Below are positions 1-18,505 of a DNA stretch of 18,505 nt, one piece after another. The notes below the pieces were generated by a model. It saw only the letters and a program-made list of their open reading frames with translations, was not told the origin of the DNA and searched no databases. The DNA comes from an uncultured bacterium. Lineage in GTDB: Bacteria; Deinococcota; Deinococci; Deinococcales; Trueperaceae. Each line of letters begins with the position of its first letter. Positions within the stretch are counted from its first letter, which is position 1. The translations under genes and the position numbers were made by a program. The stretch is from contig CAYGTA010000037.1 of the NCBI GenBank assembly GCA_964352605.1, forward strand, positions 1 to 18,505. The letters run 5' to 3'.

Positions 1-11
1 TTCTAAGTCTA

Positions 12-482
12 ATGTCTTGCTCACAGCAAGCAGCCCCAACAGTAATCTCCGCTGAATTTGAAGAATACTTCATTCCAAAAGAAGGCACCAGCATTCAACT
101 AAATACAGGTGAAAGAATTGTTATTGACGCAGGCTTTTTTGAAAATGATGTCACCATTGCCTTAAGTCAGTTTCAAGCAAAATTAATAGATAGTGAACAA
201 AGCGCAATCGGAAACACATTAAAAATCACTGTCTTCAAGCAAACTTTAACTAACACGCAGAACAAAAGCATTCATATTTACCCAAACTACCCAAACACAA
301 ACAACAAAAATATATATGCAGAGTTAACCCTAGAAGACACCTCAGGTAAACAAGCAAGCTACCAAAAAGACCTAAACTCAACAGAAATAAAAGAAAATGG
401 CATTCAAATACACTCGAGTGATCTGCTGGCTACTGAGCGTGTAAGTAACGCTGTGATCGCAATTCAAGTTATTGCCCAATAA
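12..482 (+). CDS. Hypothetical protein, Asn/Thr/Gln-rich low-complexity middle region, possibly a lipoprotein. The reading frame is open back to the window start, so the true start may lie upstream (5'-partial)
   Basis: 156-aa ORF from the track. No in-frame stop between position 3 and the ATG at 12. The N-terminal ...LSLMSCSQQ looks like a lipobox-like L-x-S-C followed by polar residues. I recognise no known domain. Stop TAA at 480-482 abuts the stop of the convergent moeB gene. Confidence 0.45.
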   Translation: MSCSQQAAPTVISAEFEEYFIPKEGTSIQLNTGERIVIDAGFFENDVTIALSQFQAKLIDSEQSAIGNTLKITVFKQTLTNTQNKSIHIYPNYPNTNNKNIYAELTLEDTSGKQASYQKDLNSTEIKENGIQIHSSDLLATERVSNAVIAIQVIAQ

Positions 483-1298
483 CTAACTTGGCAAAACATT
501 GCAAAACGCATCATAGTCAATGAGTTCTGAAATGCTGGGTGCATCACCACATACTTCACAGTTTGGGTTTCGAGCTAGGTTTACACGTCTGGCATCGTTA
601 TAAAGCGCATCAAAATGCTGTAAAACACCAATTAAAGGTTCACCTAAACCCAAAATGAATTTAACAGCTTCAGCTGCCATCATGCTGCCAATAATGCCGG
701 GTAAAACGCCAAATACGCCTGCTTCAGCGCAACTAGGCACCGTGCCAATTGCGGGTGGAGTTGGGAATAAGCAACGGTAACAGGGCCCTTTAATTTTTTT
801 TAAAGAAGCATTGAAAATAGAAAGTTGACCTTCAAATTGCGAAATGGCACCATAAATGAGGGGTTTAGCCTCTAAAACACAAGCATCATTTACGAGATAG
901 CGAGTCGGGAAATTATCACTACCATCAATCACTAAGTCATAATTAGCAAAAAGCACTCGAGCGTTCTCTGAACTAAGTTTAAGGTCATGCAGATTAATGC
1001 TTACTAAAGGATTTAAGCCTTTAAGCATGTGCTCAGCTGACTTTGTTTTGGCTTGACCAATATGCGCACTCGAGTGAATAATTTGGCGTTGTAAGTTGCT
1101 TAAGTCAACCGTGTCAAAGTCTACAATACCTAGTGTGCCTACACCGGCTGCGGCTAGGTACATTAGAATAGGGGAGCCTAAACCTCCGGCGCCTATGACA
1201 AGCACTTTGGCTTGCATGAGCTTTTCTTGGCCTTGTGCACCAACGCCATCTAAAATTATGTGCCGTGAATAGCGGTCTAGGTGTTCTTTGCTGAACAT
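483..1298 (-). CDS. moeB: HesA/MoeB/ThiF-family E1-like adenylyltransferase, probably the molybdopterin-synthase adenylyltransferase MoeB
   Basis: 271 aa. Rossmann nucleotide-binding motif VLVIGAGGLGSP. RYSRHI…G…GQ N-terminal signature of ThiF/MoeB. Two CxxC pairs (CYRC … CEVCG) typical of the Zn-binding C-terminal region of MoeB/ThiF. Confidence 0.8.
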   Translation of the reverse strand: MFSKEHLDRYSRHIILDGVGAQGQEKLMQAKVLVIGAGGLGSPILMYLAAAGVGTLGIVDFDTVDLSNLQRQIIHSSAHIGQAKTKSAEHMLKGLNPLVSINLHDLKLSSENARVLFANYDLVIDGSDNFPTRYLVNDACVLEAKPLIYGAISQFEGQLSIFNASLKKIKGPCYRCLFPTPPAIGTVPSCAEAGVFGVLPGIIGSMMAAEAVKFILGLGEPLIGVLQHFDALYNDARRVNLARNPNCEVCGDAPSISELIDYDAFCNVLPS

Positions 1299-1356
1299 GC
1301 GTTCTTAGTAAAGCATGACAAGGCTGTTAGGCATGTGATTGGAGGGTTGCTTGTCG

Positions 1357-1614
1357 CTATGATTTTTGATCGTAAGATTTGAAGCGTTGTACATCTTCTG
1401 ATCTTAAGTATTTGTGTTTGGTTTTGCGACTGTTGACGCGTTCACGCCAACGTTTATACGTTTTGCTTGGTTGAACTTTTCGCATGAGCTTTTTAGTTTC
1501 TGCTTCTTTAAGGCCAAATTGTGCTTCTATGGCTTCAAAAGGCGTGCGGTCTTCCCATGCCATCATGATGATACGGTCAATCTCTGCTTGGTTAAACTCA
1601 GGACTATCTTTCAC
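1357..1614 (-). CDS. DUF2805 / TIGR03643-family small protein of unknown function
   Basis: 85 aa with the highly conserved IDRIIMMAWEDRTPFEAIEAQFGL…RKTKH core characteristic of this family. Divergent from prfB. Confidence 0.7.
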   Translation of the reverse strand: MKDSPEFNQAEIDRIIMMAWEDRTPFEAIEAQFGLKEAETKKLMRKVQPSKTYKRWRERVNSRKTKHKYLRSEDVQRFKSYDQKS

Positions 1615-1940: not shown

Positions 1941-3033
1941 ATGAAAGAACAACAAGAAAGACTCGAAGCCCTCAGGGGGTATCTTTGACGTAACTGTCAA
2001 AGAACAAGAACTCAAAAAACTCGAGCCTAAACTAAATGACCCTAATCTCTGGAGTAATCCAGATGAAGCCAAAAAAGTCAGTCAAGAAGCCACACGCTTA
2101 AGAAAAGTAGTTGAAGGTTTCAAAAGCCTAGAAGATGACATTGAAAGCCTAACTGAGCTTTACGAAATGGCATCTGCAGAAGAAATACTCGAGCTTGATG
2201 AGGAAAAAGCCTTAATTCAAACGCAACTCGATGAGCTTTACCGTGAGACTTTATTTTCAGGTGATCATGATGATAGCGCCGCGATTATTACTATTAAGCC
2301 AGGTGCTGGCGGGACAGAAGCGCAAGATTGGGCGGGCATGCTTTTTCGTATGTATAAGCGCTACTCTGAGCGTAAAGGCTTTAATGTAGAAATTCTTGAT
2401 GCTGTGGGTAGTGACTCGGCTCCGCAAGGTATTGATTATGCTCAGATGATTGTGCGTGGTGAGCGCGCCTTTGGCTTGCTGCATGTTGAGGGGGGTGTGC
2501 ATCGTTTGGTTAGAACGAGTCCGTTTGACTCTAATAACCGTAGGCACACAAGTTTTGCTTCTGTTGAACTTATGCCTGAAATTGATGATGAAATTCAAAT
2601 TGAAGTTGACCCTAAAGATGTTCGGGTGGATGTCTATCGCTCGTCAGGGCCAGGTGGTCAGAGTGTCAATACGACTGACTCAGCGGTGCGCTTAGTGTTT
2701 AAGGGTGGCACGCCCGATGAGATTGTGGTGACTTGCCAAGATGGTAAGTCACAAATCAAAAATCGTGAAAAAGCCATGAAGGTACTTAAAAGTCGCTTGT
2801 GGGAGAGAGAAGAACGTAAGCGTTTAGACGAGCAGCTTCTTGCACGTGGTGAGCAAAAAGCGATTGAGTGGGGCTCACAAATTCGCTCTTACGTTCTAGA
2901 TAAGCAGTACATAAAAGATCACCGTTCCGGTGAAATGCGGCATGACCCAGACAATGTCCTAGATGGAGATATTGAAGACCTCATCTGGACTGGTTTAGAA
3001 TGGGAAGCAAGTGCTCGTACGCAAGCAAACTAA
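1941..3033 (+). CDS. prfB: Peptide chain release factor 2 (RF2), expressed via programmed +1 ribosomal frameshift. Frame 0 is 1941..1985 (MKEQQERLEALRGYL), then +1 from 1987 to 3033
   Basis: RBS AAGGAGG at 1928-1934, ATG at 1941. Frame 0 ends at in-frame TGA 1986-1988 after CTT. Downstream frame (the track ORF 2167..3033 lies in it) encodes DVTVKEQEL…, with the RF2-specific SPF tripeptide (RTSPFDS) and the GGQ motif (SGPGGQSVN). The N-terminal peptide …LRGYL/D is colinear with E. coli RF2. Confidence 0.92.
1974..1989 (+). other. prfB autoregulatory +1 frameshift site: internal Shine-Dalgarno-like AGGGGG, 3-nt spacer, slippery CTT followed by TGA C
   Basis: Sequence AGG GGG TAT CTT TGA C is identical to the canonical E. 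coli prfB recoding site: SD-like element 3 nt upstream of the CUU P-site codon, and the poor stop context UGAC. Confidence 0.9.
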
Positions 3034-3043
3034 AGGAATTCAG

Positions 3044-3069: not shown

Positions 3070-3076
3070 GGGTTTC

Positions 3077-3715
3077 ATGCGTATACTCGCCATTGCGGAC
3101 GCAGTAAGCCCAATTATTTACTCAACCAATTTCCCCCAAAATTTACCTGACTTTGATTTACTGCTAAGTGCCGGTGACATGCCTGGTCATGTACTCGAGT
3201 TTTTGGCTACGAAGCTAACGAAGCAGCCTATTTATGTTTTGGGTAACCATGGTAATGGCTATATTTATGACACTGAGACTACTCAGAAGATGTTACCTGG
3301 TGGTTGCATAAATGCTCATAAAAGAGTTTTAGAAATAGAGGGGGTGCTCATTGCGGGTATAGAGGGTAGTGCGCGCTATAAACCGGGTGAGCAGCAGTAC
3401 AGCCAATTTCAAATGTCTCGCATGGTTGATCTTTTAACGCCACAGCTAATGTTGAATAAGTACAGAAAAGGTCGTGCGGTTGATATTTTACTTACCCACG
3501 CAGCCCCATGTGGACCGCATGAGGGTGAAGATTTTCCGCATAGAGGTGTTAAGGCGTTTAACCATTTTCATAAACGTTGGAAACCTAGATTGCATGTTCA
3601 TGGTCATGTGCATCTGAGTGGTGCTAATTCACCTCGTGAGTACACTTCAGAAGAAGGTGTGCGTGTGATTAATGCTTTTGAATTTACCCTTATTGATACG
3701 GAGGATTTTGCTTAA
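3077..3715 (+). CDS. Calcineurin-like metallophosphoesterase family protein (atypical motif I/II)
   Basis: 212 aa. Metallophosphoesterase motifs GD (SAGDMPG), GNH (LGNHGNG), an internal H (LLTHAAP) and GHxH (HVHGHVH). Motif I reads IADAV, lacking the usual DxH histidine. SD AGGGG lies 5 nt upstream of the ATG. Confidence 0.75.
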   Translation: MRILAIADAVSPIIYSTNFPQNLPDFDLLLSAGDMPGHVLEFLATKLTKQPIYVLGNHGNGYIYDTETTQKMLPGGCINAHKRVLEIEGVLIAGIEGSARYKPGEQQYSQFQMSRMVDLLTPQLMLNKYRKGRAVDILLTHAAPCGPHEGEDFPHRGVKAFNHFHKRWKPRLHVHGHVHLSGANSPREYTSEEGVRVINAFEFTLIDTEDFA

Positions 3716-3717
3716 GT

Positions 3718-4953
3718 ATGTCTAAGTTAATTTTAATAATGATTGATGGGGTGAGTGCGGATTACTTTGCAAGCTGCCGAACCCGTTTACCACATTTATC
3801 TCGCTTAGCCAAAGAAGGCTTGGTGGTAGAGAATTTGCGTTCTGATATGCCCGGAACCTCTTTAACAGGACGTACTACCATGATTACTGGTGTAACAGCA
3901 GATGTGCATGGTATTTGGGGCAATATTATTTGGGATGGCAGTCGTTTTCGTTATGCCAACCCAGATGATGTTCGGGTAGAAACCATAGCCAAACAAGCCA
4001 TGGAAAGCGGCTTAGATGTAGCTTGTATGGGCTACGGCATGTTACGAGCTCAAGATGCAAGTGTTTTTCACCACGCATGGTGGGCTAACGAAATGCTGCA
4101 ACGAGCGCGAGATTTAGAACCCATAGAAGCTGATGAAGGTTGGCTAAAAACCTCAAGATTTCAAGATCCCACAGGTAGGTTAAACGCCCTAGCTAAACGA
4201 GGCTACCCTGATAGCATTCCAGATGCTTACGCAAGCGACCGACTGCATTACATAGCTTCAGAATTTACGGGTGACCAAACCATGCTGCAATGGACAGCAG
4301 GACTCGCAAGTTCAGAGTCACCCCCTGACTTTATACTCACGGAAATACTAACACCCGACACGGTGCAGCACTTTGCTGGCTACAAAAGCCACTTTGGTCA
4401 CTGGTCAATAGCCTACGCTGATGCACTGGTTGGCAGCCTAATAGCAGAACTCGAGCTTTCAGATAAATTAAAAGACTATAGTTTTGCCATCATGAGTGAC
4501 CATGGGCATGGGGTCGTAACTAAAGCTATTTACGCAGATATTATATTGCCTGATTACACCTTGTCACCTGAAGGTGCAACCTTGCATGTAGTCGTAGAAA
4601 ACCAAAATCAAGTAAAAGACTTAGTCAAAAAACTCGGGCCTTTTGGGGTTGAGTTGTTTAACTCGAGCCATGTGCCTAGTGAATTTCAAAGTAACATTGC
4701 TACCTTTGTTGCGCCTGAAGGGCATTATTTTTCTTCTGCACCCGAAGGAAGCCTTGAGCCAATAGGTGAGGCCAAAGCTTTATCTATGCATGGCTTTAAA
4801 CCGGGTAATCCAGCCGATGACAGATTTGCGGTTTTTTGGGGTAAAGATATTCCTAAGCGAACAGTAGATTGCGCAGATGCAATTCAGGTCACGCCAACTC
4901 TTGCAAAGATTTTAGGCTTGAATTTGGATTACCCCGCGCAGTCTATTTTTTAA
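3718..4953 (+). CDS. Alkaline-phosphatase-superfamily protein, type I phosphodiesterase / nucleotide pyrophosphatase (NPP, PF01663-like) family
   Basis: 411 aa. N-terminal IMIDGVSADYF metal-ligand motif. PGTSLTGRTTMITG region corresponding to the nucleophile Thr/Ser segment. C-terminal MSDHGHG metal-binding motif. Start ATG lies 2 nt after the upstream stop, so the two genes are translationally coupled. Confidence 0.75.
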   Translation: MSKLILIMIDGVSADYFASCRTRLPHLSRLAKEGLVVENLRSDMPGTSLTGRTTMITGVTADVHGIWGNIIWDGSRFRYANPDDVRVETIAKQAMESGLDVACMGYGMLRAQDASVFHHAWWANEMLQRARDLEPIEADEGWLKTSRFQDPTGRLNALAKRGYPDSIPDAYASDRLHYIASEFTGDQTMLQWTAGLASSESPPDFILTEILTPDTVQHFAGYKSHFGHWSIAYADALVGSLIAELELSDKLKDYSFAIMSDHGHGVVTKAIYADIILPDYTLSPEGATLHVVVENQNQVKDLVKKLGPFGVELFNSSHVPSEFQSNIATFVAPEGHYFSSAPEGSLEPIGEAKALSMHGFKPGNPADDRFAVFWGKDIPKRTVDCADAIQVTPTLAKILGLNLDYPAQSIF

Positions 4954-5051: not shown

Positions 5052-6248
5052 TTAAGCAGTTTTACGTCTTAAACCCTGATCTAAAATTAACTCATAATCA
5101 TCAAGATTCTTCTCAGTTAAGGTCAACTCAGTAATATCTGAATCAGGCACCTCAAACATAAGCTCGAGTAATACTTTTTCTAATATGGCTTTTAAACCAC
5201 GGGCACCGGTTTTGCGTTCTTGGGCGCGTTTTGCGATTTCTTCTAGTGCTTCAGAAGTGAAATTTAGTTTTATGCCTTCAAGCAAAAAGAGTTCTTGGTA
5301 TTGCTTTAAAAGCGCATTTTTTGGCTTGGTAAGTACATTAATTAATGCTTCTAAGCTTAAATCTTGTAGTCTCACATGAACAGCCAAACGACCAATTAAT
5401 TCAGGAATAAGCCCAAACTTCATAAGATCTTCAGGTGTGACATCCATGTTTTCAATAGTAGGGGCACCCTCTTCATTAGAATGAAAGCCTACTTTGTTGA
5501 TATTGGTTCTGTTAGATATAATGTCGTTAATACCTTCAAAAGCACCCCCGCAAATAAATAAGATGCGGCTCGTATCGACAGGAATAAGTTCCTGATGCGG
5601 ATGCTTACGGCCACCTTGCGGTGGTACATGCGTGACTGTGCCTTCAATCATTTTGAGTAAAGCCTGCTGCACACCTTCACCTGAAACATCTCTAGTAATG
5701 CTTGTGCCTTCAGACTTACGGGCAATCTTATCTACCTCATCAAGATAAATAATGCCGCGTTCAGCCGCATCAACATCATAATTGGCAGTTTGCAAAAGTC
5801 TTAAGATGATATTTTCAACATCATCACCCACATAGCCAGCTTCCGTGAGGGTTGTTGCATCTGCAATTGCAAAAGGTACTTGTAAAATACGCGCTAAGGT
5901 TTGAGCCAGTAAGGTTTTACCGGTACCACTCGAGCCGAGCATAAGGATGTTTGATTTTTCTATTTCACTGTCAGGATGTTGTAGCCTTCTGTAGTGGTTG
6001 TATACGGCTACGGCTAAGGTTTTTTTGGCTATTTCTTGCTCTATAACATATTGATCTAAGTGATTTTTTATTTCTCGTGGGGTTGGTATGCGTGTTGCGT
6101 TAAAACTTCTTGGTTGCGCTGCGTCTAAAACATCTGAAATACGATCAACACAATAATTACAAATATGAGTAAGGCCATTTTCGCTGGCGACAAGCCTGCT
6201 CACTTCAGCATGGGTTCTTCCGCAAAAATTGCAGCGCGGTTGGGGCAT
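5052..6248 (-). CDS. clpX: ATP-dependent Clp protease ATP-binding subunit ClpX
   Basis: 398 aa. N-terminal C4 zinc-binding domain (CNFCGR…CNYCVD). Walker [12 protein letters not shown]-like loop region. Strong colinearity with E. coli ClpX. ATG immediately follows the clpP TAA (TAAATG). Confidence 0.95.
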
Positions 6249-6857
6249 TTAGCTGTCCTTGCTTCCAAAGGCTTTGCGAGGTTCTACTACTTCGTCAATA
6301 AGGCCGTATTCTTTTGCTTCTTCGGGTGACATAAAGTTATCTCGTTCCATGTCTTTTCGAACCTCTTCTTTTGTTTTGCCTGTGTGCCTTGTATAAATGC
6401 CTTCCATGGTGTCTCTTAGGTAGGAAAACTCGTTTGCCATGACTTCAAGGTCAGGTAGACTGCTTCTGCCCATACCTGCTGAACCTGCGTGAATCATAAC
6501 GCGGCTATGGGGTAAGGCCGTGCGGTGACCTTTTTCGCCAGCCATAAGAATGATAGAACCAAATGACATTGCCATGCCAACACAGGTTGTGTATATGGGT
6601 GCCTGTACAAATTGCATGGTGTCGTAAATCGCTAAGCCTGAGTAGACTTCGCCACCGGGGCAGTTGATAAAAATGTTTATGGGTTGATCGTGTGACTGTG
6701 AATCTAGGAAAAGAAGTTGCGCTACCATGGTGTTTGCTACATTAGAATCAATAGGTGTTCCTAAGAAAATAATGCGTTCTTTCATTAAGCGACTGTAGAT
6801 GTCGTACATGCGTTCGCCGCGACCGGTTTGTTCAATTACATAAGGAACTAATGACAT
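6249..6857 (-). CDS. clpP: ATP-dependent Clp protease proteolytic subunit ClpP
   Basis: 202 aa. Conserved ClpP core (ERIIFL…, catalytic Ser region GMAMSFGS, His in MIHAGSAG). RBS AAGAGG upstream of the ATG. Confidence 0.95.
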   Translation of the reverse strand: MSLVPYVIEQTGRGERMYDIYSRLMKERIIFLGTPIDSNVANTMVAQLLFLDSQSHDQPINIFINCPGGEVYSGLAIYDTMQFVQAPIYTTCVGMAMSFGSIILMAGEKGHRTALPHSRVMIHAGSAGMGRSSLPDLEVMANEFSYLRDTMEGIYTRHTGKTKEEVRKDMERDNFMSPEEAKEYGLIDEVVEPRKAFGSKDS

Positions 6858-7085
6858 AATTACCTCTTATACCAAAGATTTGTGTGGTGATTGCTAGTAA
6901 AAGCTAACATTTTGCAATCAAGCCTAGGTTTATATGTTTAAGTATGCCTGTGCTCAGCTTAACTATGCTGTTAGCTTGCTCACCAAATGAACAGTATGAT
7001 TGGTTTGACCTGTCATTCTAATTTAAGCTTTGCCTGCTTTGAGCATTTCCACGATTTATCTGCGAAGCAGTAAGTCGTGTGACCC

Positions 7086-7135
7086 TTGAATCGCATGATA
7101 TCGGAACGCATTGAATGGCATGATATCGGAACGCT
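7086..7135. repeat. Tandem direct repeat, 2 x 25 bp (TTGAAT[C/G]GCATGATATCGGAACGC[A/T]), about 230 bp upstream of clpP and just downstream of the tig terminator
   Basis: Units 7086-7110 and 7111-7135 are identical at 23 of 25 positions. Each contains an EcoRV-centred GATATC and a GGAACGC core. Confidence 0.8.
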
Positions 7136-7157
7136 TTGGGTCATTGAAATAAATATC

Positions 7158-7194
7158 CTAAAAAAACCGCTTCCTTGCTAGCAAGGAAGCGGTT
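7158..7194 (-). terminator. Rho-independent terminator of tig
   Basis: On the minus strand, a perfect 14-bp stem (AACCGCTTCCTTGC / GCAAGGAAGCGGTT, centred on GCTAGC) is followed by a run of 7 U (plus-strand A-run 7160-7166), 20 nt after the tig stop. Confidence 0.85.
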
Positions 7195-7217
7195 AAAGTT
7201 AATGAATGCGAATGAAC

Positions 7218-8783: not shown

Positions 8784-9917
8784 TTAATCTTTTATTTTCA
8801 AAAAAGCTGCCGGCGTTTTATGCCTAAACAAAGCAAAAATAGAAAATGCAAATGCCAAAAACAAAAACACACTCGAGCTTTGTATAGCTGCACTCGAGCT
8901 GCCTAGCAGATCAGCGCTAATGCCACTTAAGCTTGGTCCGAGTGCTTGGCCGAGTGCGAAGCTGGCGGTGGAGTACGCCATGGCTCTGGCCCATTCGCTT
9001 GGCTTTAGTTCTTCTCTAAAGATGTTGGTTATGGCGGTTATTACGCCCAAGAAGCTTATGCCGAACATAAAGGCAGAAAGCCAAGGTAGGGTTTGGACTA
9101 AGACATAAAAACTCGAGCTTGCTAGTGTAAGTAAGATGATGCTAAGGCCGAGCTTACCGCCAACTTTGCTGATGATGGGTGACCAGAATATGCCTGTTGA
9201 GGTTGCACCTATACCGAGTATTAGCCAGAAAAACATGATTGAGCTTTGTAAGCTGCTGGTTATGAACGTCATGTAGCCTATGTAGCCTAGACCATAAAGC
9301 CCGTAGGCAATTAATATGAGCGTGAATTGACTTAGTTTTTGTTGCTCGGCGCTGCTTTTGTTTCTTACTGCAGGTTCTTTTAAGTATTTATAGATGGGCA
9401 AAATCATGAGGCTAAAAATGAGACTTAAAATGCCTAGTAATAGCCAGCCTTGCTGCCAGCTTTTCATGAGGGGCAAAATAATAGGGGAGACAAGAATGCC
9501 TATGCCAACCCCGCTAAAGTAAAGCCCTGTGGCTGTGCCTTTGCCTCCACTTGCCAAAATAAGGGTTGCGCCACCTACAAAAACACATGCGCCCAGAAAG
9601 CCTTGCGTAAACCGTAGCAACATCATGACGCTAAGAGGTAAATTTAAGCTTAGTAAGAGAAGGCTAGCTGTTTGCAAGAAAAGACACAAAAATAAGCCTT
9701 GTTTGTAACCAAGTTTGTAAAGAATGTGGTGACTAATGAGCGCGCCAATTAAGTAACCTGCGGTGTTTGAACTACCTATGTAACCGGCTTGCGCGTAACT
9801 TAAGCCTAATTGTTGTTGCATTTCTGGTAAGACCAGTGCGTAGGCAAAACGGCCTATCCCAACCGCTGCACCAGGTGCAAAGCCTAAAAAGAAGCCAAGG
9901 AGAAGCTGCAAACGCAT
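8784..9917 (-). CDS. MFS transporter, YbfB-like family (DUF1228)
   Basis: 377 aa, about 12 predicted TM helices. N-terminal GIGRFAYALVLP motif typical of YbfB-type MFS proteins. Confidence 0.7.
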   Translation of the reverse strand: MRLQLLLGFFLGFAPGAAVGIGRFAYALVLPEMQQQLGLSYAQAGYIGSSNTAGYLIGALISHHILYKLGYKQGLFLCLFLQTASLLLLSLNLPLSVMMLLRFTQGFLGACVFVGGATLILASGGKGTATGLYFSGVGIGILVSPIILPLMKSWQQGWLLLGILSLIFSLMILPIYKYLKEPAVRNKSSAEQQKLSQFTLILIAYGLYGLGYIGYMTFITSSLQSSIMFFWLILGIGATSTGIFWSPIISKVGGKLGLSIILLTLASSSFYVLVQTLPWLSAFMFGISFLGVITAITNIFREELKPSEWARAMAYSTASFALGQALGPSLSGISADLLGSSSAAIQSSSVFLFLAFAFSIFALFRHKTPAAFLKIKD

Positions 9918-10251
9918 GCCGATGATTGTATGTTAAATAAAGCTTATGGTTGTGCTTTGTTATTGCAAAACAAGCTATCCTACTTTGGTATGAGGACAGC
10001 TTGAGTCTAGCTGATTAAACTGTTTGTCATGAAAATTATTCAGTTGCCATCTCATGAATTTCGAGATTACCGTTTTTAGCGGCAGCTGTTCTATTGTTTC
10101 CCCAAACTTAACAGCCAAATACACAGCCAGCTTGAGCTAGACTCTCAACTGGTAATTTTTTTATAGTTCATTTTAGAGAGGTTTTAGCCATGTGAACCGT
10201 TAATTAATTTTTTTATATGAATGTAAGCCTAGTTCAGATACTTGCGACCAA

Positions 10252-10272
10252 GTTGGAACGATTTTGGAACGC
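10252..10272 (+). promoter_or_regulatory. Direct repeat TTGGAACG(A)-N4-TTGGAACG(C), 12-bp period, 42 bp upstream of the yqiJ-like start. Candidate transcription-factor site
   Basis: TTGGAACG at 10253-10260 and 10264-10271. Shares the GGAACGC core with the clpP-upstream tandem repeat. Confidence 0.25.
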
Positions 10273-10313: not shown

Positions 10314-11084
10314 ATGACCAGCCTACTCGAGTGGTGGAACTTTATGTTTTTGTTGCCGCTGCTGTCGGGTCTTTTGCTTGGGGTTGGCATTGTGGCTTCG
10401 GGTGCAATGGCTGATTTAGGAGATGCAGATTCTGATTTTGGAGATGCAGAGTTAGCAGATGCAGGATTTGGAGATGTTGATTTAGCAGACGCAGACTTTG
10501 CCGAATTTGATGCTGTTACGGTTGATGCTGATAGCGATTTTTCAGGTTCAGAGGCAAGTAGTCTCGATGCTGATTTATCTGAAGCTGAAGCTAGTGATGT
10601 TTTTGCTCAAATCTTAAGTTTCTTTGGTATTGGTCAAGGTCTACCGTTATCTGTCATGTTGCCAATATTGCTGGTGACTGGGGGGCTAAGTGGCTTGCTT
10701 TTAAATGGGTTTTTAGCTCGGTTTTTAGCGTCTGCCTTTGTGTTTGCACCCCTTTCTTTTGTGGTGAGTATTGTGACTTCTGCCTTTACAGGGCAGCTTG
10801 TCGCTAAGTCACTTGCCTCAGTTTTAAAAGCCAAACCCACAGCGATTTCAACAGGAGGATTGATTGGTTTAACAGGTAAAGCGGTTTACACAATTTCTAG
10901 CACAGGAGGTGTTGCTCATATAAAAGATCCTTATGGAAATATTCACCGAATAAGTTGTTTTACAGAGCTTGAACAGCCCATTGCTGCAAATCAAGCCATT
11001 CAAGTTATAGCGTTTGATACCAAACGTCGAAGCTATCTGGTAGAGCCAGCTGCTCTAGAAACCTTTGAAAAGGAGAAGATATGA
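10314..11084 (+). CDS. yqiJ: YqiJ-like inner-membrane protein with a C-terminal NfeD-type OB-fold. Partner of the downstream flotillin
   Basis: Architecture is TM1, then an acidic loop, then TM2-3, then a C-terminal beta-rich OB domain (GLTGKAVYTISSTGGVAHIKDPYGNIHRISCFTEL…IQVIAFD), colinear with E. coli YqiJ. RBS AAGGAGG at 10302-10308 favours the ATG at 10314 over the track's GTG at 10308. Stop overlaps the next start (ATGA). Confidence 0.7.
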   Translation: MTSLLEWWNFMFLLPLLSGLLLGVGIVASGAMADLGDADSDFGDAELADAGFGDVDLADADFAEFDAVTVDADSDFSGSEASSLDADLSEAEASDVFAQILSFFGIGQGLPLSVMLPILLVTGGLSGLLLNGFLARFLASAFVFAPLSFVVSIVTSAFTGQLVAKSLASVLKAKPTAISTGGLIGLTGKAVYTISSTGGVAHIKDPYGNIHRISCFTELEQPIAANQAIQVIAFDTKRRSYLVEPAALETFEKEKI

Positions 11085-12892
11085 TTTCATTACTGTTTAC
11101 TGTGGTTGCGGTTGCAAGCATAGTACTAAGTCTATTTGGGGCTAGTTTGCTACCCACATGGTCATTTTTTAATAGTGTTGTGAGTTTGGTATTTGGCTTG
11201 GTCTTTTTTGTACTTGGCTTAACCGTCTGGGCAATACGTAGCTTTTATATAAAGCCATCTGCAAATGAAGCCTATGTCATAACGGGCATGGGTGGCCGCA
11301 GGGTATTGATTGACCAAGGTGGCCTGTTTATACCTATTGTTCAACAGATGGTGCCCGTATCACTAGAAACCATGAAGCTAGATGTAGAGCGACTTGGGCA
11401 AGATGCTCTCATTACTAAAGACAATTTACGTGTCGATATGCGTGGTGAATTCTACATTAAAGTCTTACCAGACCAAGATGATGTGATTAACGCAGCCAGA
11501 AGTTTAGGAGATAAAAGCGTAAACTCAGAGTCAGTATCTGACCTTGTTTTTGAAAAGCTGGTATCAGCCTTACGAAGTGTTGCAGCGACAAAAGAGCTTG
11601 TTGAAATACATGCCCAAAGAGACGAATTTGCAGGTGCAGTGCAGCATCTTGTTACCACTGACTTAGAACAAAATGGGCTGACTTTAGAAAGCGTTACCGT
11701 ATCTCGATTTGACCAAACCAACCAAGATATGCTTTCTGACAGCAACATCTTTGACGCGCAAGGTAAACGAAAAATAACCGAAATAACCCAATCAGCCCTT
11801 GTAGAACGTAACCGCATAGAACAAGAAGCCTTCCGAGAAATAACCACCAAAAATGTAAATACACGTAAAGAAACCCTAGAACTCGAGCGTCAGCAAGCAG
11901 AGGCTGAAGCTGCGCAAGAGTCAGAGATTAGTCAAGCTCAGTCAGAGCGTAGTCGTGAAGCTGAAACCTACCGTATTGAGCAGCAACGTCAAGTTGAAGA
12001 AGCTCAGATTGCGCAAGAAGAAGCTGTTAAACGTCGTAGTTTGGAGCGTGACCGTGAACTTATTGCCAGACAGCAAGAGTTAGAAACAGCTGATGTTAGT
12101 CGTAAAAAAGCGGTAGATATTGCAGAGCGGCAACGTCAAGTAGAAATTGCTGATGCGGAACGTGCAAGGGCAGAAGCAGAACAAGCTTACCTTTTAGCTC
12201 AAGCTGCCCGTGAAAGTGCCGAACAAGAAGTTACAACCGTAACCCGACTTGCAGAAGCAGAGCGTGAAGCGCAAACAAAGCTTATTGCTGCCAAACAGCA
12301 AATCGAAGAAGACCGCTTCCGTCAAGAAACGGATGCAACAGTAGAGGCCTTTGCTGAAGTTAAAAAAGCAGAAGCTAGCCGTGAGGCAGCTGTACTAGAA
12401 GCTGAAGCTGCTCTAAGTAGAGCTCGAGCTGAGGCTGAAGCTAAAGAGCGTCTTGCAATTGCTGAAACCGCATTAAAGCGTGTGGATGTTGATATTGAAA
12501 AGGAAAAAGTTTCAGTTGAGCAGGCTCGAGTTGCGGTTGAGCGTGAGGCTTTAGAGAACCGTGAGCAGTTTAGTCAAGCTGCTATTGAGTTTGAGGTTCA
12601 GAAATTGCGTATTGAAGCGTCAAGAGATGTTCAAGTTGAGCTTGCTAAGGCTATTTCTGAATTCATGAGCCGCGGCAATATGCAGATTTTTGGCTCTCCT
12701 GAAACGATGTCTAACATGATGAGTCAATACGCTAAGGGTATGGGTATTGGGCAAATGGTAGATGGTGTTGCTGAAAACACTGACTTGCTTAGTAGTGGCA
12801 AGATGATGGAAATTATGACAGGCTTACAAGCTGTTGTAAGTGAGTTTAAAAAGCCGGAGGCTGCTACGGACTCCGATAAGAATTTATCCTGA
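11081..12892 (+). CDS. yqiK: Flotillin-like SPFH/Band-7 domain protein (YqiK-like) with a long EA-rich coiled-coil region
   Basis: 603 aa. N-terminal TM helix. SPFH domain (NEAYVITGMGGRRVLIDQGGLFIPIVQQM…KDNLRVDMRGEFYIKV). About 250 aa of E/A/R/Q-rich heptad-like sequence, typical of the flotillin coiled coil. Confidence 0.85.
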   Translation: MISLLFTVVAVASIVLSLFGASLLPTWSFFNSVVSLVFGLVFFVLGLTVWAIRSFYIKPSANEAYVITGMGGRRVLIDQGGLFIPIVQQMVPVSLETMKLDVERLGQDALITKDNLRVDMRGEFYIKVLPDQDDVINAARSLGDKSVNSESVSDLVFEKLVSALRSVAATKELVEIHAQRDEFAGAVQHLVTTDLEQNGLTLESVTVSRFDQTNQDMLSDSNIFDAQGKRKITEITQSALVERNRIEQEAFREITTKNVNTRKETLELERQQAEAEAAQESEISQAQSERSREAETYRIEQQRQVEEAQIAQEEAVKRRSLERDRELIARQQELETADVSRKKAVDIAERQRQVEIADAERARAEAEQAYLLAQAARESAEQEVTTVTRLAEAEREAQTKLIAAKQQIEEDRFRQETDATVEAFAEVKKAEASREAAVLEAEAALSRARAEAEAKERLAIAETALKRVDVDIEKEKVSVEQARVAVEREALENREQFSQAAIEFEVQKLRIEASRDVQVELAKAISEFMSRGNMQIFGSPETMSNMMSQYAKGMGIGQMVDGVAENTDLLSSGKMMEIMTGLQAVVSEFKKPEAATDSDKNLS

Positions 12893-13720: not shown

Positions 13721-13829
13721 CGTAACAGGTAACGATAACCAGTTACCCGTAACAAGCCTAGCAACAGGAAGCTCGAGTGTTTTTTGCTCCCCTTTTTTTA
13801 GGGTGCTGTCTGCAAGTTTGAAAGCTATC

Positions 13830-14747
13830 TTAGCCCGCCTTTACTTTTTTGCGTTTGGCTGTTGTGGCTTTGTGCTTCTCAACAGAACTTTCAAGATAGC
13901 CAATGATGCTTCCTGCTACATCAACCCCTGAGGACTTTTCTATGCCTTCAAGACCGGGTGATGAATTGACTTCCATGACTACAGGGCCACTGTTTGAGCG
14001 AAGCATATCTACACCTGCAACGCCAAGACCTAAAACTTCTGCTGCTTTTACCGCTGTAGCACGTTCTTTTGCACTTAATTTAATAAGTTCAGCCGTTCCA
14101 CCTTGGTGCAGATTTGAACGAAACTCACCTTCGGCTGCTTTGCGTTTCATACTGGCAATAACCTTGCCACCAACGACAAAGGCACGTATATCTTCACCGT
14201 TTGCTTCTTTCACAAATCGCTGTACCAAAATATTAGCGTCTAGTTGACGGAAAGCACCAATAACTGATTCAGCTGCTTTATCGCTTTCAGCTAAGACTAC
14301 ACCAATGCCTTGGGTACCTTCTAGCAGTTTAATAATAAGAGGTGCGCCGCCTACAATATCAATTAAGCCTTTAACATCTTTGGTGGAATGCGCAAAGCCA
14401 GTTGTTGGCAAGCCCACACCAGCTCTTGATAAAAGCTGCAAAGACCTAAGCTTGTCACGCGAACGTGTAATAGCCTGAGACTCATTAGCTGAAAAAACAT
14501 GCATCATTTCAAACTGACGAACAACTGCAGTACCGTAAAATGTGTGACTTGCACCCACACGAGGAATAATGGCGTCAAACTCGAGTTCTTCACCTACAAA
14601 GATGACTTTGGGTTTTTTGGGGCTTATGTCCATGTAGCAGCGTAAGTAGTCAATCACGCGTACTTCATGACCTTTTTCTAGGGCTGCTTCGACTAGCCTT
14701 TGGGTGGAGTACAGCTTAGGGTTGCGAGATAAAATGCCGAGCTTCAT
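13830..14747 (-). CDS. rimK: RimK, ATP-grasp alpha-L-glutamate ligase (ribosomal protein S6 modification protein)
   Basis: 305 aa. Typical RimK N-terminus [21 protein letters not shown]-grasp fold motifs, and a Lys-rich C-terminal tail. Confidence 0.9.
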
Positions 14748-15356: not shown

Positions 15357-16472
15357 CTAAATCGATCTGTATGGGATGACGGTAACTGGCGCTCGCTACC
15401 TAGCCTAGAATCTGACATTGAGGCAGATGTTTGTGTAATTGGCTTAGGAGGCTCAGGGCTTAGCTGCATTTTAGAGTTAGTCGAGCTTAATCAGCGTGTG
15501 GTTGGTCTTGATGCTGGCATGATAGCTGGAGGCGCAGCAGGGCGTAACGGCGGATTTTTGCTGGCTGGTTTAGCTGCTTTTTATCATGAAGCCATAACTG
15601 CGCTTGGGCATGAGCGAGCCAAAGCTATTTACGCTTTAACTGTTTCACACATACAAAAGATTATCTCTGAAGCGCCACAGCTTTGTAAACAAACAGGGTC
15701 GCTGCGCATAGCGAGTTCTGAAAAAGAACTAGCGGATTGTGAAGCGCAGTACGACGCCTTAAAGAAAGATGGCTTTGACGTAGAACACTATGAAGGTCAA
15801 GAAGGTAAAGGCCTTTACTTTGCAACTGACGCAGTCTTTAACCCCTTACTACGCTGCAGAACGCTAGCAAAAAAAGCCATGCAAGAAGGCGTGCAGCTCT
15901 TTGAACATTCAAAAGTAATCAAACTAAACCAAAACCTAGTAGAAACAAAAGAAGCTCGAGTTCACTGCAAGCATATTATTGTGGCAATAGATGGCAAACT
16001 CGAGCTTTTGTTACCTGAGTTATCTGCTGAGGTTCGTACTTCTAGGTTGCAAATGTTAGCTACTGAAGCGCTGCCAGACATTATTTTTCCTAAGCCTGTT
16101 TACTTGCGTTGGGGGTACGAGTACTACCAGCAGTTAGCAAATGGCTCAGTTGCGTTGGGTGGCTTTAGAGATAAAGCTGAGGCTGAGGAATGGACCTTTG
16201 AAAGTGAGCCTAGCAAAGCTATTCAGGCTAGGCTCACTGAGTTTCTAAGGCGAGATTTAAAGCTTAGTGCAAAGGTTACGCACCGCTGGGCTGCGTCTGT
16301 GAGTTACTCAAAAACGGTGTTGCCTTATTTTGCTCAAGTGCGACCTTATGTCTGGGCAATAGGGGCTTACAATGGCACAGGTAATGTCTTAGGGGCGGTC
16401 TGTGGTCGCGCCGTAGCGCAACAAGCGATACTAGGGAAGTCAGAGCTTGCAGCCTTGTTTTTAGGGCCTTAA
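15354..16472 (+). CDS. FAD-dependent oxidoreductase of the DAO family, PuuB/OrdL (gamma-glutamyl-amine oxidase)-like
   Basis: 372 aa. Dinucleotide-binding DVCVIGLGGSGLS followed by GxxAGRNGG, as in PuuB/OrdL-type amine oxidases. 3' end overlaps the convergent hemolysin-III gene by 12 bp. Confidence 0.75.
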   Translation: MLNRSVWDDGNWRSLPSLESDIEADVCVIGLGGSGLSCILELVELNQRVVGLDAGMIAGGAAGRNGGFLLAGLAAFYHEAITALGHERAKAIYALTVSHIQKIISEAPQLCKQTGSLRIASSEKELADCEAQYDALKKDGFDVEHYEGQEGKGLYFATDAVFNPLLRCRTLAKKAMQEGVQLFEHSKVIKLNQNLVETKEARVHCKHIIVAIDGKLELLLPELSAEVRTSRLQMLATEALPDIIFPKPVYLRWGYEYYQQLANGSVALGGFRDKAEAEEWTFESEPSKAIQARLTEFLRRDLKLSAKVTHRWAASVSYSKTVLPYFAQVRPYVWAIGAYNGTGNVLGAVCGRAVAQQAILGKSELAALFLGP

Positions 16473-17150
16473 ATAAATAAGCATCATGAAGTAATGGCTT
16501 GCCCCCCCAGCCAAAACAAACAAATGCCAAAGTTCGTGGTGTCCAAAAACACCAGGGTAAAAGTTTGGTCTTTGTAAACCAAAGATAACTGCGCCTGCTG
16601 TGTAAAACACGCCACCCAACAGCAAGAGCATAACTGCTCCAGAGCTGAGCGTTTGGGTTAAAGGCCCAAGAACAAACAAAGCTAACCACCCCAAAGCAAC
16701 ATAAAAGCTAGTTGAGTACCAGTGGTTAAGGTCTAACCACCTCAATTTAACCGTCATGCCTGCAGCAGCTAAAAGCCAAACAAGCAAAAATAATCCCCAA
16801 CCCAAAAAGATATTATGCTCTTTTAAACGAAGTAAAGCTATTGGCGTATAGCTACCTGCAATTAAGCAAAAAATGCCAACATGATCGAGTTTTAGAAGTA
16901 AGCGTCTTTGCTGATTACTAACCTTAAAGCCATGCAGAGCACTACTTGCTGCGTAAAGAATGATAGAGCTTAAACCATAAACAATAAAACTATAAACGTG
17001 CAAGCTGTTACCCCAAGATAAAGCCACCAAAACAATAGTGCCGATTAGACTTAAAAAGACACCAAAAAGATGGGTTAGGCAATTGATGGGTTCATATAAG
17101 TACTGATCAAGAAGACGAATAAAGCGTGGTTTTAGCTCTAAGGTACTCAT
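16461..17150 (-). CDS. trhA: Hemolysin III / PAQR-family membrane protein (YqfA/TrhA-like)
   Basis: 229 aa, 7 predicted TM helices. PAQR His motifs: HLFG near the N-terminus, DHVGIF mid-protein, C-terminal HHELWHLFV. Confidence 0.8.
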   Translation of the reverse strand: MSTLELKPRFIRLLDQYLYEPINCLTHLFGVFLSLIGTIVLVALSWGNSLHVYSFIVYGLSSIILYAASSALHGFKVSNQQRRLLLKLDHVGIFCLIAGSYTPIALLRLKEHNIFLGWGLFLLVWLLAAAGMTVKLRWLDLNHWYSTSFYVALGWLALFVLGPLTQTLSSGAVMLLLLGGVFYTAGAVIFGLQRPNFYPGVFGHHELWHLFVLAGGASHYFMMLIYLRP

Positions 17151-17242
17151 AGGTCATTATGCCATTTTTACTTCAAAAGCTGCTCTTAATTATCACATAC
17201 TTTCTTAATACATGCTTTATAAACAAAGGCAGAAAGTTAAAT

Positions 17243-18217
17243 TTACTTAGCTATACTTGCTTTTTGCTCACCAACGCAAAGAATTGCATCTTTATCAATA
17301 TCATTTCTTAAAACCGCTAAAGCCATAACGCCAAAGTCAGGATGCCTAACCACAGTAGCTAAAACCCCAACCCGTTTATCATTGAGCAAAATATTCTTTT
17401 CAGATGTAAGACCACTTAGGCTAAGCTTAGTTAACTCACGACGCAAGTTCCCACGCGCTTCAATTCGGGCCATAATCTCTTGCCCCAAATAACAACCCTT
17501 AGTATAAGACACAGCAAACGCGAGCCCTACCTCTTGCGGCAAAACACCGCCAGCCGCCTCGGTGGCTGCCTTAGGAATAACAGCTAATACTCGAGCTATT
17601 TCCGCGGCCTCCTGACTGACTGTTTGAGCTCCTGCTTCAATCAAGGCACTAAGAAGCTGCTCAGCTTGTTCTTGTGCTATCAACAAGTCAAACCCACCCG
17701 CATTGCTTCGTTTAGAGCTGAGCATAATCAAATCACTGCCATTAAACACAGTTGTTTGCGCAGTACTGCCCTCAGGTAAAGGTGTAAACAAAGACTCGAG
17801 TGTCATCTGAGCTTTGGCTCCTTGGACTGAAAATGCCTGCAAGGAGATACGCTCTAAACTAACTTGGTCAAAAATAATGTGTCTTTTGAGTTGCTCTTGC
17901 ACTTTGTCAATATCATTATCTTCAATTAATAAGAGACAGTCTTCTTTTCGTCTAAGGACTTTCATTTGTGCCAAAGCATGCCCTTTATGATTCAACATAA
18001 GAGAGGCGTTAAAGCTGTTCTCAGCTAAGCCTTTAACAGTGTTACTTAGTTGACCATGTAAAAAGTCGAGCCTATCTGCACCTGTTACCCTTAAAACTTG
18101 GAGCTTAAGTAGATTAATAATGCCAAGCTTTTCTAGAGCTTCTAGTTCTTTTTTAAGGCTTCCTGATGGCATGCTTGCAGTGTATTGTGAGATTTCTAAA
18201 GGAGGAATAAAAGTCAT
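17243..18217 (-). CDS. ygfZ: tRNA-modifying / Fe-S cluster repair folate-binding protein YgfZ (CAF17 family)
   Basis: 324 aa with the family-defining KGCYLGQE motif near the C-terminus and a GcvT-like fold signature. Adjacent to a hemolysin-III gene, as in E. coli ygfZ-yqfA. Confidence 0.85.
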   Translation of the reverse strand: MTFIPPLEISQYTASMPSGSLKKELEALEKLGIINLLKLQVLRVTGADRLDFLHGQLSNTVKGLAENSFNASLMLNHKGHALAQMKVLRRKEDCLLLIEDNDIDKVQEQLKRHIIFDQVSLERISLQAFSVQGAKAQMTLESLFTPLPEGSTAQTTVFNGSDLIMLSSKRSNAGGFDLLIAQEQAEQLLSALIEAGAQTVSQEAAEIARVLAVIPKAATEAAGGVLPQEVGLAFAVSYTKGCYLGQEIMARIEARGNLRRELTKLSLSGLTSEKNILLNDKRVGVLATVVRHPDFGVMALAVLRNDIDKDAILCVGEQKASIAK

Positions 18218-18505
18218 GCTCTACAAGTAGCATAGCTTGGGCTTATAACCTGCAAGCTGCTTAACCAAGTTGATGTTTTTTAGGTAATAAATGTTTTTAA
18301 TAGCAGTTCCACAATAAACCTAAGTCGCTTGCTGCCTTTATTTTACTGACCAAATGTCAAACGAATTATCTGCTTTGCAGATAACTCATAGAAAAGCTAT
18401 AGGTTGTAGTTCTTTGACAAAGATGGGCTTAGTTAAACCCTTTATTTGTGCCAAACCAGATTACAGAATTTACCTTTGTTGATGAAATTGAGAAATGCTA
18501 GATAA

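Follow-up and report, generated by a model that had tools for sequence, protein, structure and literature searches.

Why does one octameric palindrome recur more than once per kilobase in the genes of a low-GC bacterium, and what kind of process put it there? The window considered here is a whole, complete MAG contig of 18.5 kb, on which all counts for this genome are based; its source is a bacterium of low GC (42%) related to Trueperaceae (Deinococcota), and the window has a GC content of 42.4% and is about 88% coding. A recount found CTCGAG 23 times, exactly at the coordinates listed in an earlier note on this DNA, and all 23 copies carry an R...Y flank and are thus RCTCGAGY (5' base, A in 18 and G in 5; 3' base, C in 13 and T in 10; density, 1.24 per kb). 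Collapsed by strand, they comprise 16 copies of ACTCGAGC/GCTCGAGT, 6 of ACTCGAGT, and 1 of GCTCGAGC; the base flanking the 46 half-sites is A in 28, G in 18, and C or T in none.

The over-representation proposed in the note is robust. In 200 dinucleotide-preserving shuffles, 1.9 copies of CTCGAG (largest, 6) and 0.66 of RCTCGAGY (largest, 3) were expected, versus 23 observed for each. In 1000 synonymous-codon shuffles of the CDSs, the 21 copies in called ORFs compare with 2.9 ± 1.6 for CTCGAG (largest, 10) and 0.8 ± 0.9 for RCTCGAGY (largest, 4), and the R...Y flank, present in 23/23 copies, is found in about 28%. The enrichment is 12- to 35-fold. CTCGAG is the most over-represented hexamer, and no other palindrome comes close (the runner-up palindromic hexamer, TCATGA, occurs 14 times versus 3.7 expected); the commonest 7-mer, 8-mer, and 10-mer of the window are ACTCGAG, ACTCGAGC, and AAGCTCGAGT, respectively. 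The share of TCGA tetramers that lie within the motif had been put too high, at two-thirds; it is 23/42 (55%).

Along the window, the first copy, ACTCGAGT at 412..419, is read as CAC TCG AGT (H-S-S) in a plus-strand hypothetical ORF of 156 aa. The minus-strand moeB gene holds ACTCGAGC at 955..962 (GCT CGA GTG, A-R-V) and ACTCGAGT at 1068..1075 (CAC TCG AGT, H-S-S), and plus-strand prfB holds ACTCGAGC twice, at 2019..2026, directly 3' of the programmed +1 frameshift (AAA CTC GAG CCT, K-L-E-P), and at 2187..2194 (I-L-E-L). Three more copies on plus-strand genes follow: ACTCGAGT at 3193..3200 in a metallophosphoesterase-like ORF (V-L-E-F) and ACTCGAGC at 4449..4456 (E-L-E-L) and 4661..4668 (AAC TCG AGC, N-S-S) in a phosphodiesterase/sulfatase-like ORF. 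On the minus strand, clpX has GCTCGAGT at 5162..5169 (L-L-E-L) and ACTCGAGC at 5928..5935 in the Walker A region (GGC TCG AGT, G-S-S), and a gene for an MFS transporter has three ACTCGAGC copies, each encoding S-S-S (8871..8878, 8892..8899, and 9111..9118). Plus-strand genes then carry ACTCGAGT at 10325..10332 (YqiJ-like 258-aa ORF, L-L-E-W) and, in an SPFH/flotillin-like gene, ACTCGAGC at 11881..11888 (E-L-E-R), the sole G...C-flanked copy, GCTCGAGC, at 12422..12429 (GCT CGA GCT, A-R-A), and GCTCGAGT at 12524..12531 (A-R-V). Two minus-strand genes have one copy each, namely, GCTCGAGT at 13771..13778 in an in-frame N-terminal extension of an AstE/AspA-like gene (T-L-E-L) and ACTCGAGT at 14579..14586 in rimK (E-L-E-F). 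The remaining four are GCTCGAGT at 15954..15961 (A-R-V) and ACTCGAGC at 15998..16005 (K-L-E-L) in a plus-strand FAD oxidoreductase gene, and ACTCGAGC at 17589..17596 (A-R-V) and ACTCGAGT at 17794..17801 (T-L-E-S) in a minus-strand ygfZ-like gene.

The statement that all 23 copies lie in CDSs holds only once the annotation is corrected in two places: site 2020 lies inside prfB, 3' of the frameshift, and site 13772, though formally 5' to any canonical start codon of its gene, falls in an extension without one that is nevertheless covered by the family profile. It does not hold as a significant feature, because about 88% of the window is coding (probability, about 0.06), and noncoding copies exist in relatives (e.g., 6/25 in locus L082). 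Likewise, clpP and tig do lack copies, but the absence is not significant (0/4 permissive positions filled).

RCTCGAGY abundance is not an effect of codon usage, dipeptides, or composition. Both coding strands carry copies, and every reading frame is represented (11/5/7), with 12/23 in frames 1 and 2. Among the codons that had been called disfavored, CTC (10% of Leu codons) and TCG (4% of Ser codons) are indeed minor, and so is CGA (14% of Arg codons), but AGY is not, since AGC (25%) and AGT (27%) lead Ser codon usage; GAG makes up 34% of Glu codons. RCTCGAGY fills 23/46 (50%) of the positions in the window's proteins where synonymous codons permit it, whereas control words of the form R-palindrome-Y fill 4.6% on average (median, 0). 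About 52 Leu-Glu dipeptides are encoded, and CTCGAG is used in 11/24 of those with permissive flanks and in none of those with nonpermissive flanks. At distances of 0, 1, 2, and 3 changes from the word, the permissive positions number 23, 0, 6, and 9, whereas codon usage predicts 0.7, 6.6, 13.6, and 11.4. RCTCGAGY behaves as an absorbing state: a permissive site either is the word or needs two or more changes to become it. A distribution of this shape is seen in eight relatives, while the nonenriched controls L019 and L009 track expectation. The failure of codon shuffles, the use of three frames, the 50% occupancy, and the missing near-cognate states bear out the earlier argument that selection acts on the DNA word and not on protein or codons.

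The core is shared with relatives in Deinococcota, whose loci were taken from independent NCBI, JGI, ENA, and Logan assemblies and contain 1 to 6 copies of CTCGAG per kb with lineage-specific flanks. In L082 (GC,.44), CTCGAG occurs 25 times versus 1.8 expected, and 24/25 copies are RCTCGAGY. GCTCGAGC is the commonest form among relatives and the lineage form in L083 (GC,.44; CTCGAG, 30 versus 2.1 expected; GCTCGAGC, 17), L086 (GC,.45; 23 versus 2.1; GCTCGAGC, 13), L005 (GC,.52; 20 versus 4.5; GCTCGAGC, 17), and L001. The bare hexamer prevails in L002 (GC,.46; 30 versus 2.3 expected), with mixed flanks and a mild preference for G, in L023 (GC,.55; 26 copies in 4.4 kb), with no clear flank preference, and in L037 (GC,.48; 39 copies in 8.2 kb), with none. 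Each lineage fills 45 to 74% of the positions permissive for its own word. These data show that CTCGAG is constant across deep relatives and that the flank rule varies by lineage (G...C, R...Y, at least one G, or none). In L001, total CTCGAG matches the codon expectation (20 versus 15), yet GCTCGAGC occurs 17 times versus 2.4 expected and unflanked CTCGAG only 3 times versus about 13. In clpX, the copy at 5162..5169 aligns with GCTCGAGC in L005, L001, and L002, and the position of the Walker A copy is also occupied in L005 and L082.

With half of the permissive positions filled and the same core under other flanks in relatives, RCTCGAGY appears to be an equivalent, in a second phylum, of the unexplained cyanobacterial repeat HIP1 (GCGATCGC), and the parallel suggested in the note is strengthened by the hyperabundance of one core, with flanks that vary by lineage as HIP1 does in cyanobacteria, in independently assembled relatives. 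HIP1 is likewise an octameric palindrome common to a clade; it recurs roughly once per kb within coding DNA, irrespective of frame, and codon usage does not account for it. The density in the window is inside the HIP1 range of 300 to 2700 per Mb (PMC4390886). The relatives' GCTCGAGC mirrors GCGATCGC, both being GC plus a 4-bp palindrome plus GC, and the L001 hexamer lacks an excess outside its flanked context, as does CGATCG outside HIP1 (Elhai, PMC4390886). The two differ in core (TCGA here, GATC in HIP1) and phylum, in the degenerate, A-preferring R...Y flank of the window, and in that no cognate methyltransferase has been identified for RCTCGAGY; HIP1 and CGATCG are themselves absent from the window. 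Cyanobacteria also have lineage-specific replacements whose core and flanks vary among related genomes, i.e., TCGATCGA, GGGATCCC, GGCGCC, and rCCGGy (Elhai 2015, PMC4390886). The last shares the degenerate purine...pyrimidine flank, although the sequences are different and each is tied to an identified methyltransferase specificity, unlike RCTCGAGY. In the literature searched, we found no earlier report of a CTCGAG repeat in Deinococcota.

The mechanisms raised in the note, namely, a methyltransferase with repair bias, an uptake signal, a segregation signal, and phosphorothioation, are all candidates. We suggest, at a probability of about 0.55, that RCTCGAGY is a lineage-specific HIP spread through the genome by a process that reads double-stranded DNA and not codons or protein, that a solitary (orphan) DNA methyltransferase probably targets its core, and that a bias dependent on methylation is the probable cause of the build-up of copies. 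Our best guess at this bias is either (i) a mismatch-repair ratchet as Elhai proposed for HIP1, in which a G beside the methylated first C (G-mC) would direct repair so that mutations creating a flanked site are kept, or (ii) an advantage that methylation would give in recombination or transformation. In either case, the flank rule would mirror the specificity of a reader protein, a specificity that in this genome would have loosened from G to R. The strict G-mC model leaves the 28 A-flanked half-sites of the window and the bare-hexamer lineages L023 and L037 unexplained. No methyltransferase, Vsr-like, or restriction gene is present in the window or in any relative locus examined, so the link to methylation is drawn by analogy only. 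Escherichia coli Dcm/Vsr very-short-patch repair, with its excess of CCWGG, is likewise a methyltransferase-linked repair bias that raises a methylated palindrome, but its effect is small, unlike the enrichment here, and its deamination-product words are depleted. Here, CTTGAG/CTCAAG are not depleted overall (10 versus 12 to 16), nor are the single-mismatch neighbors of CTCGAG over the whole sequence, and the classic very-short-patch repair signature is thus absent. The same word is cut by XhoI (CTCGAG), PspXI (VCTCGAGB), and AvaI/BsoBI (CYCGRG), and PspXI exemplifies that readers of CTCGAG with flank discrimination exist. Restriction pressure depletes sites, and Deinococcus loci do avoid CTCGAG; as CTCGAG is enriched here, the likely identity of any enzyme acting at this site is a solitary methyltransferase or some other reader.

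It is possible, though on balance doubtful, that the word is a DNA uptake or recombination-stimulating signal spread by molecular drive, word-creating alleles replacing others through preferential uptake or recombination in natural transformation. Molecular drive has been proposed for USS, for DUS, and recently for HIP1. The observed density of 1.2 to 2 copies per kb, the presence of coding copies in every frame, and the way near-cognate synonymous sites have been captured agree with drive models. The USS of Pasteurellaceae and DUS of Neisseriaceae likewise lie inside genes in all frames at about 1 per kb and accumulate where tolerated, and a molecular drive is plausible for RCTCGAGY too. Deinococcus and Thermus are naturally competent, but their DNA uptake is reported to be sequence independent. 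Furthermore, known uptake sequences are asymmetric 9- to 12-mers, not palindromes, USS and DUS having a known receptor or demonstrated uptake bias, and a flank rule that differs between close lineages would break a shared uptake signal. In favor of the signal reading, methylated HIP1 raises transformation >100-fold in Synechococcus PCC 7002 (bioRxiv 10.1101/2024.09.10.611283), and HIP1 has been proposed to be an uptake sequence (bioRxiv 10.64898/2026.06.24.733823).

A less probable reading is that weak selection holds each copy as a binding site for a plentiful DNA-binding protein, for instance, one that structures the nucleoid or takes part in segregation. The palindrome and its purine/pyrimidine flank rule would fit a dimeric reader, a link with chromosome structure has been argued for HIP1 (PMC5861425), and copies in L086, L023, and L083 are spaced somewhat more regularly than a Poisson process would give (coefficient of variation, 0.59 to 0.75). 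However, spacing in the window is Poisson-like (0.90), there is no candidate protein, and selection on each site would need the strength to fill 50 to 74% of permissive sites.

Very improbable is a composition artifact, whether from CTC-GAG usage for Leu-Glu or as an undecayed relic of a high-GC ancestor's codons. High-GC Trueperaceae loci do have CTCGAG at roughly the level of CTC/GAG usage, with 85 to 95% of copies in frame 0, but occupancy of permissive positions is higher in low-GC relatives (61 to 74%) than in high-GC ones (19% for GCTCGAGC in L009). Together with the distance distribution, the codon shuffles, the minor status of CTC, the GAG share, the out-of-frame copies, the invariant flank, and the Leu-Glu pattern described above, this refutes composition as a sufficient explanation. 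Artificial sites (an engineered construct with XhoI sites, linker contamination, or an assembly artifact), for which no support was found, are refuted, as the window is a whole NCBI MAG contig, a 4.2-kb JGI metagenome contig 99.3% identical to it (L081) retains all three MFS transporter copies, and the word is also enriched in independent NCBI, ENA, and Logan assemblies, in frame in conserved genes and at positions common to relatives.

A recount of CTCGAG in the window gave 23 copies, with coordinates identical to those in the earlier note, and all 23 match the palindrome RCTCGAGY, as had been claimed. In 200 dinucleotide-preserving shuffles, CTCGAG is expected 1.9 ± 1.3 times (maximum, 6) and RCTCGAGY 0.66 times; the latter is thus 35-fold overrepresented, at a density of 1243 copies per Mb. 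With strands collapsed, the copies read ACTCGAGC/GCTCGAGT (n = 16), ACTCGAGT (n = 6), or GCTCGAGC (n = 1), and all 46 half-sites have a purine flank (A in 28, G in 18). CTCGAG is the most overrepresented hexamer of this DNA (42.4% GC), with other palindromic hexamers far behind, and the commonest 7-mer, 8-mer, and 10-mer are ACTCGAG, ACTCGAGC, and AAGCTCGAGT, respectively. Spacing of the copies within the window is Poisson-like, with no regularity. Across the low-GC clade (the window, L082, L083, and L086), positions -2 and -3 beside G-flanked motif halves are rich in A (AAGCTCGAG). An engineered or assembly artefact is rejected, because a 4.2-kb contig of JGI metagenome 3300007643 (L081), 99.3% identical to the window, retains its three copies; an indel of 25 bp, lying at some point within the overlap (6027 to 10263), distinguishes the two.

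The copies are not a by-product of coding. Eleven are read in the frame CTC GAG (Leu-Glu), seven as NRC TCG AGY (x-Ser-Ser), and five as GCT CGA GYN (Ala-Arg-Val/Ala), in genes on both strands. When synonymous codons were exchanged among all CDSs, preserving the proteins and the codon usage (codons contributed by the motif included), CTCGAG was expected 2.9 ± 1.6 times (maximum, 10 in 1,000 shuffles) and RCTCGAGY 0.8 ± 0.9 times, against 21 observed in each case, which bears out the view that codon usage does not account for the word. There are 46 permissive positions, at which the encoded peptide allows RCTCGAGY by synonymous codons alone, and 23 of these (50%) are filled, compared with 4.6% on average (median, 0) for 47 control words built as R-palindromic hexamer-Y. 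Furthermore, CTCGAG never encodes Leu-Glu where the neighboring codons cannot provide R and Y. The synonymous shuffles, frame counts, flank-dependent Leu-Glu coding, and occupancy comparisons together rule out both a codon or dipeptide explanation and a relic of a formerly high GC content.

The most telling result is the distribution of distances from the word at the 46 permissive positions, with the expectation taken from codon usage outside the motifs. The intact word is found at 23 positions (0.7 expected), sequences one change away at none (6.6 expected), two changes away at six (13.6 expected), and three changes away at nine (11.4 expected). Near-cognates that can be converted without altering the protein have thus been swept into RCTCGAGY. 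Across the whole sequence, single-mismatch neighbors of CTCGAG are present at expected levels, so that near-cognates survive only where the protein forbids conversion; their depletion is limited to synonymous-permissive positions and applies there to every kind of change. These data show the word to be an absorbing state for synonymous variation, and the site that is read to be a symmetric duplex subject to a purine/pyrimidine rule at the flanks.

The genes of the window are of an ordinary housekeeping kind: moeB, prfB, clpX, clpP, tig, rimK, rimB, trhA, ygfZ, and genes for an MFS transporter, an SPFH/flotillin-like protein, an AstE/AspA-like deacylase, and an FAD oxidoreductase. Rfam and tRNA scans detected no RNA genes in it. 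Twenty-one copies lie inside mechanically listed ORFs. The copy at 2020 is in prfB, 3' of the programmed +1 frameshift (CTT TGA C at 1983 to 1989; region, 1942 to 1989), a classic and already-known feature that is preceded here by a Shine-Dalgarno-like AGGGGG. The copy at 13772 is in a 39-codon in-frame upstream extension of the AstE/AspA-like gene (13721 to 13837, reverse strand), which is homologous to the N termini of that family and into which the family profile reaches. ATG, GTG, and TTG are all absent from this extension, and it overlaps the stop codon of rimK, suggesting either a noncanonical start (ATA at 13826 to 13828) or a sequence error; the AstE-like gene is clustered with rimB and rimK. 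The statement that all copies lie in genes is therefore defensible as a count (23/23), but it does not stand as a property of the element, because about 88% of the window is coding (P, ~0.06 by chance) and relatives have noncoding copies. The spacer separating the tig stop from the clpP start contains a perfect, loopless 30-bp palindrome (7165 to 7194), which reads AACCGCTTCCTTGCT and then AGCAAGGAAGCGGTT.

The window is one complete NCBI contig of 18,505 bp. Its host is a Deinococcota member of low GC content, close to Trueperaceae, as judged from its ClpX, which is 70 to 74% identical to those of MAGs labelled Trueperaceae and 55 to 58% identical to those of Deinococcus, and from trigger factor searches, which revealed closer relatives (63 to 69% identity, and 91% in one relative). 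Otherwise, the window proteins match only tiny clusters.

The same core is enriched in nine loci from independently assembled relatives, with a flank rule that is G...C, R...Y, or none. Among low-GC loci, CTCGAG occurs 25 times in L082 (Logan; GC,.44; 1.8 expected), where 24 of 25 copies are RCTCGAGY; 30 times in L083 (GCA_024642575.1; GC,.44; 2.1 expected), including 17 copies of GCTCGAGC; and 23 times in L086 (ENA; GC,.45; 2.1 expected), including 13. Among MAGs labelled Trueperaceae, L005 (JASBUK010000051.1; GC,.52) has 20 copies (4.5 expected; 17 as GCTCGAGC), L002 (JBOFGY010000076.1; GC,.46) has 30 (2.3 expected) with mixed flanks and a mild preference for G, and L001 (JAXHMC010000024.1; GC,.63) has 24, of which 21 are GCTCGAGC. 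In L087, from a complete 4.25-Mb genome (ERZ25070591 ctg148517; GC,.61), 25 of 28 copies (7.2 expected) have at least one GCTCGAG half. No clear flank preference is evident in two Deinococcales MAGs, L023 (1 to 4357; GC,.55), with 26 copies in 4.4 kb (6.0 per kb), and L037 (1 to 8220; GC,.48), with 39 copies in 8.2 kb (4.7 per kb). In these two loci, whose ClpX is 55 to 56% identical to that of the window, about one CTCGAG is expected; the copies are located within unremarkable coding sequence, 45 to 54% of permissive sites are filled, and the density exceeds the range of 300 to 2700 per Mb given for HIP1 (Elhai 2015, PMC4390886).

Because these loci have flanking genes unrelated to the window's, the enrichment is not tied to one locus. 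Each enriched lineage has filled 45 to 74% of the synonymous-permissive positions for its own word, and the near-cognate deficit is common to all of them, whereas the unenriched loci L019 and L009 track codon expectation. In L001, total CTCGAG equals expectation, yet GCTCGAGC is found 17 times against 2.4 and the unflanked form 3 times against about 13; preexisting cores appear to have been turned into the flanked form. Orthologous positions in clpX are flanked by A in the window and by G in L005, L001, and L002. Both clpX sites are common to the window and L005, and one each is shared with L082, L001, and L002, although each genome pair has just two or three jointly permissive sites, and high occupancy alone would yield such sharing; clpX, clpP, and tig are the only orthologues common to the loci, and site-conservation statistics are underpowered. 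Likewise, no motif differences exist between the window and L081 or between L083 and its close relatives L084/L085, strains that are too similar (99.3 to 99.9% identity) to reveal gains or losses of the motif. At the ClpX Walker A motif (5925 to 5940), the P-loop is GSSGTGKT in the window, L005, L002, L004, and L006, and its Ser-Ser pair makes the motif writable there (GGC TCG AGT); most relatives have GPSG or GPTG at that position.

Elsewhere in the phylum the word behaves differently. In high-GC Trueperaceae loci, CTCGAG is near the level predicted by CTC and GAG usage, with nearly all copies in frame 0. In three Deinococcus loci (L016, L018, and L032), it is found 0, 4, and 0 times against 4.8, 8.4, and 8.1 in codon shuffles, which is restriction-type avoidance in the same phylum. 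GTCGAC is found there 1, 4, and 0 times against 9.2, 7.7, and 4.4. In L004 (CP070651.1, Trueperaceae bin86), CTCGAG is at the codon level only, and other palindromes are raised (ATCGAT, 22 versus 6.6; GATATC, 15 versus 4.0).

The parallel with HIP1 drawn in the earlier note agrees with the anatomy of the element, which occurs about once per kb, in all frames, independently of codon usage, and clade-wide with lineage variants. Like the members of the HIP class (in the usage of Elhai 2015 and Xu et al. 2018), it is a short palindrome, the top word of its length, within 300 to 2700 copies per Mb (the HIP1 range), not derived from amino acid motifs, and shared by related genomes in lineage-specific forms; cyanobacterial variants include TCGATCGA, GGGATCCC, GGCGCC, and rCCGGy (Elhai 2015, PMC4390886). 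The GCTCGAGC of the relatives is built like HIP1 (GCGATCGC), as GC, a 4-bp palindrome, and GC. HIP1 proper is rejected, as GCGATCGC and CGATCG are both absent from the window. In the cyanobacteria that carry these HIPs, hexamer cores lacking the flanks show no enrichment (PMC4390886; PMC5861425). The literature searched contained no CTCGAG-based iterated palindrome or HIP-like word in Deinococcota, nor any description of this word in work on Trueperaceae methylation. The phenomenon is real, strong, lineage-wide, and previously undescribed in that literature, and most resembles the cyanobacterial HIPs. Our tentative reading, to which we assign a probability of about one in three, is that a deep branch of Deinococcota, comprising Trueperaceae-like organisms and another Deinococcales lineage, harbors a second, independent HIP system with CTCGAG as its core, and that HIPs are not confined to cyanobacteria.

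As to mechanism, a core that stays constant while its flanks change suggests either two readers or one reader with an evolvable flank contact. In Elhai's model, a methyltransferase modifies the leading C of the core, and repair is biased by recognition of G-mC (PMC4390886). Both G...C flanks and the pattern of L001 follow from this model, but the A preference of the window and the lineages with a bare hexamer do not; a broader methylation-linked bias that would spread the word is therefore favored. Such a bias might act as a repair ratchet or, alternatively, through a methylation-dependent boost of recombination and transformation, as reported for HIP1 (bioRxiv 10.1101/2024.09.10.611283) and since extended to an uptake-signal hypothesis (bioRxiv 10.64898/2026.06.24.733823). 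The methylation step is proposed by analogy only, because the sequences examined hold no methyltransferase gene: NCBIfam and Pfam scans of the window ORFs found no methyltransferase, Vsr, or restriction genes, and no methyltransferase catalytic motifs occur in any enriched locus (ORFs of the window and 27 related loci).

That transformation drive by itself spreads the word is rather unlikely. USS/DUS are asymmetric 9- to 12-mers that have a specific receptor and whose preferential uptake has been demonstrated, whereas RCTCGAGY is a perfect palindrome. Maintenance by a structural DNA-binding protein is more doubtful still. A very-short-patch-repair signature is rejected, since the T:G deamination-product words CTCAAG/CTTGAG are not depleted among the hexamer neighbors (10 versus 12 to 16 in the window, 33 versus 27 to 31 in relatives).

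HIP1 has been known for some thirty years, and how it arose and what it does are still debated, with a repair ratchet, chromosome structure, and a transformation signal all proposed. To our knowledge, the evidence on HIPs to date concerns a single phylum and, in essence, a single word. If our reading is true, the CTCGAG system has the GC-NNNN-GC architecture of HIP1 with evolvable flank rules, and would point to a general mechanism that reads a methylated C beside a flank base and is able to write a palindrome into the majority of a genome's synonymous-permissive sites. Its main value would be as an independent system for testing HIP explanations: another core, another phylum, and natural variation in flank rule and GC content (42 to 63%) provide a replicate, the models become testable through genes that covary with enrichment in Deinococcota (methyltransferases, repair nucleases, and competence genes), and the A-for-G lineage puts the G-mC model to the test. 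In practical terms, XhoI-type enzymes would cut such DNA every ~0.2 to 0.8 kb unless it is modified, and the word can serve as a strong marker when contigs are binned or assigned to the clade.

A second, weaker palindrome, TCATGA, is also raised in the window (14 versus 3.7 by dinucleotide expectation; 12 versus 4.8 ± 1.8 by codon shuffle) and ranks second in L082 as well (9 versus 2.3). The low-GC clade (the window, L082, L083, and L086) has unusually large tetranucleotide biases relative to base composition: AAGC/GCTT is 2.1- to 2.7-fold and AGCT 1.9- to 2.4-fold above expectation, GGGA, GGAC, ATCC, and CGGA are at 0.16 to 0.25 of it, with CCGG in L082 as low as 0.10.
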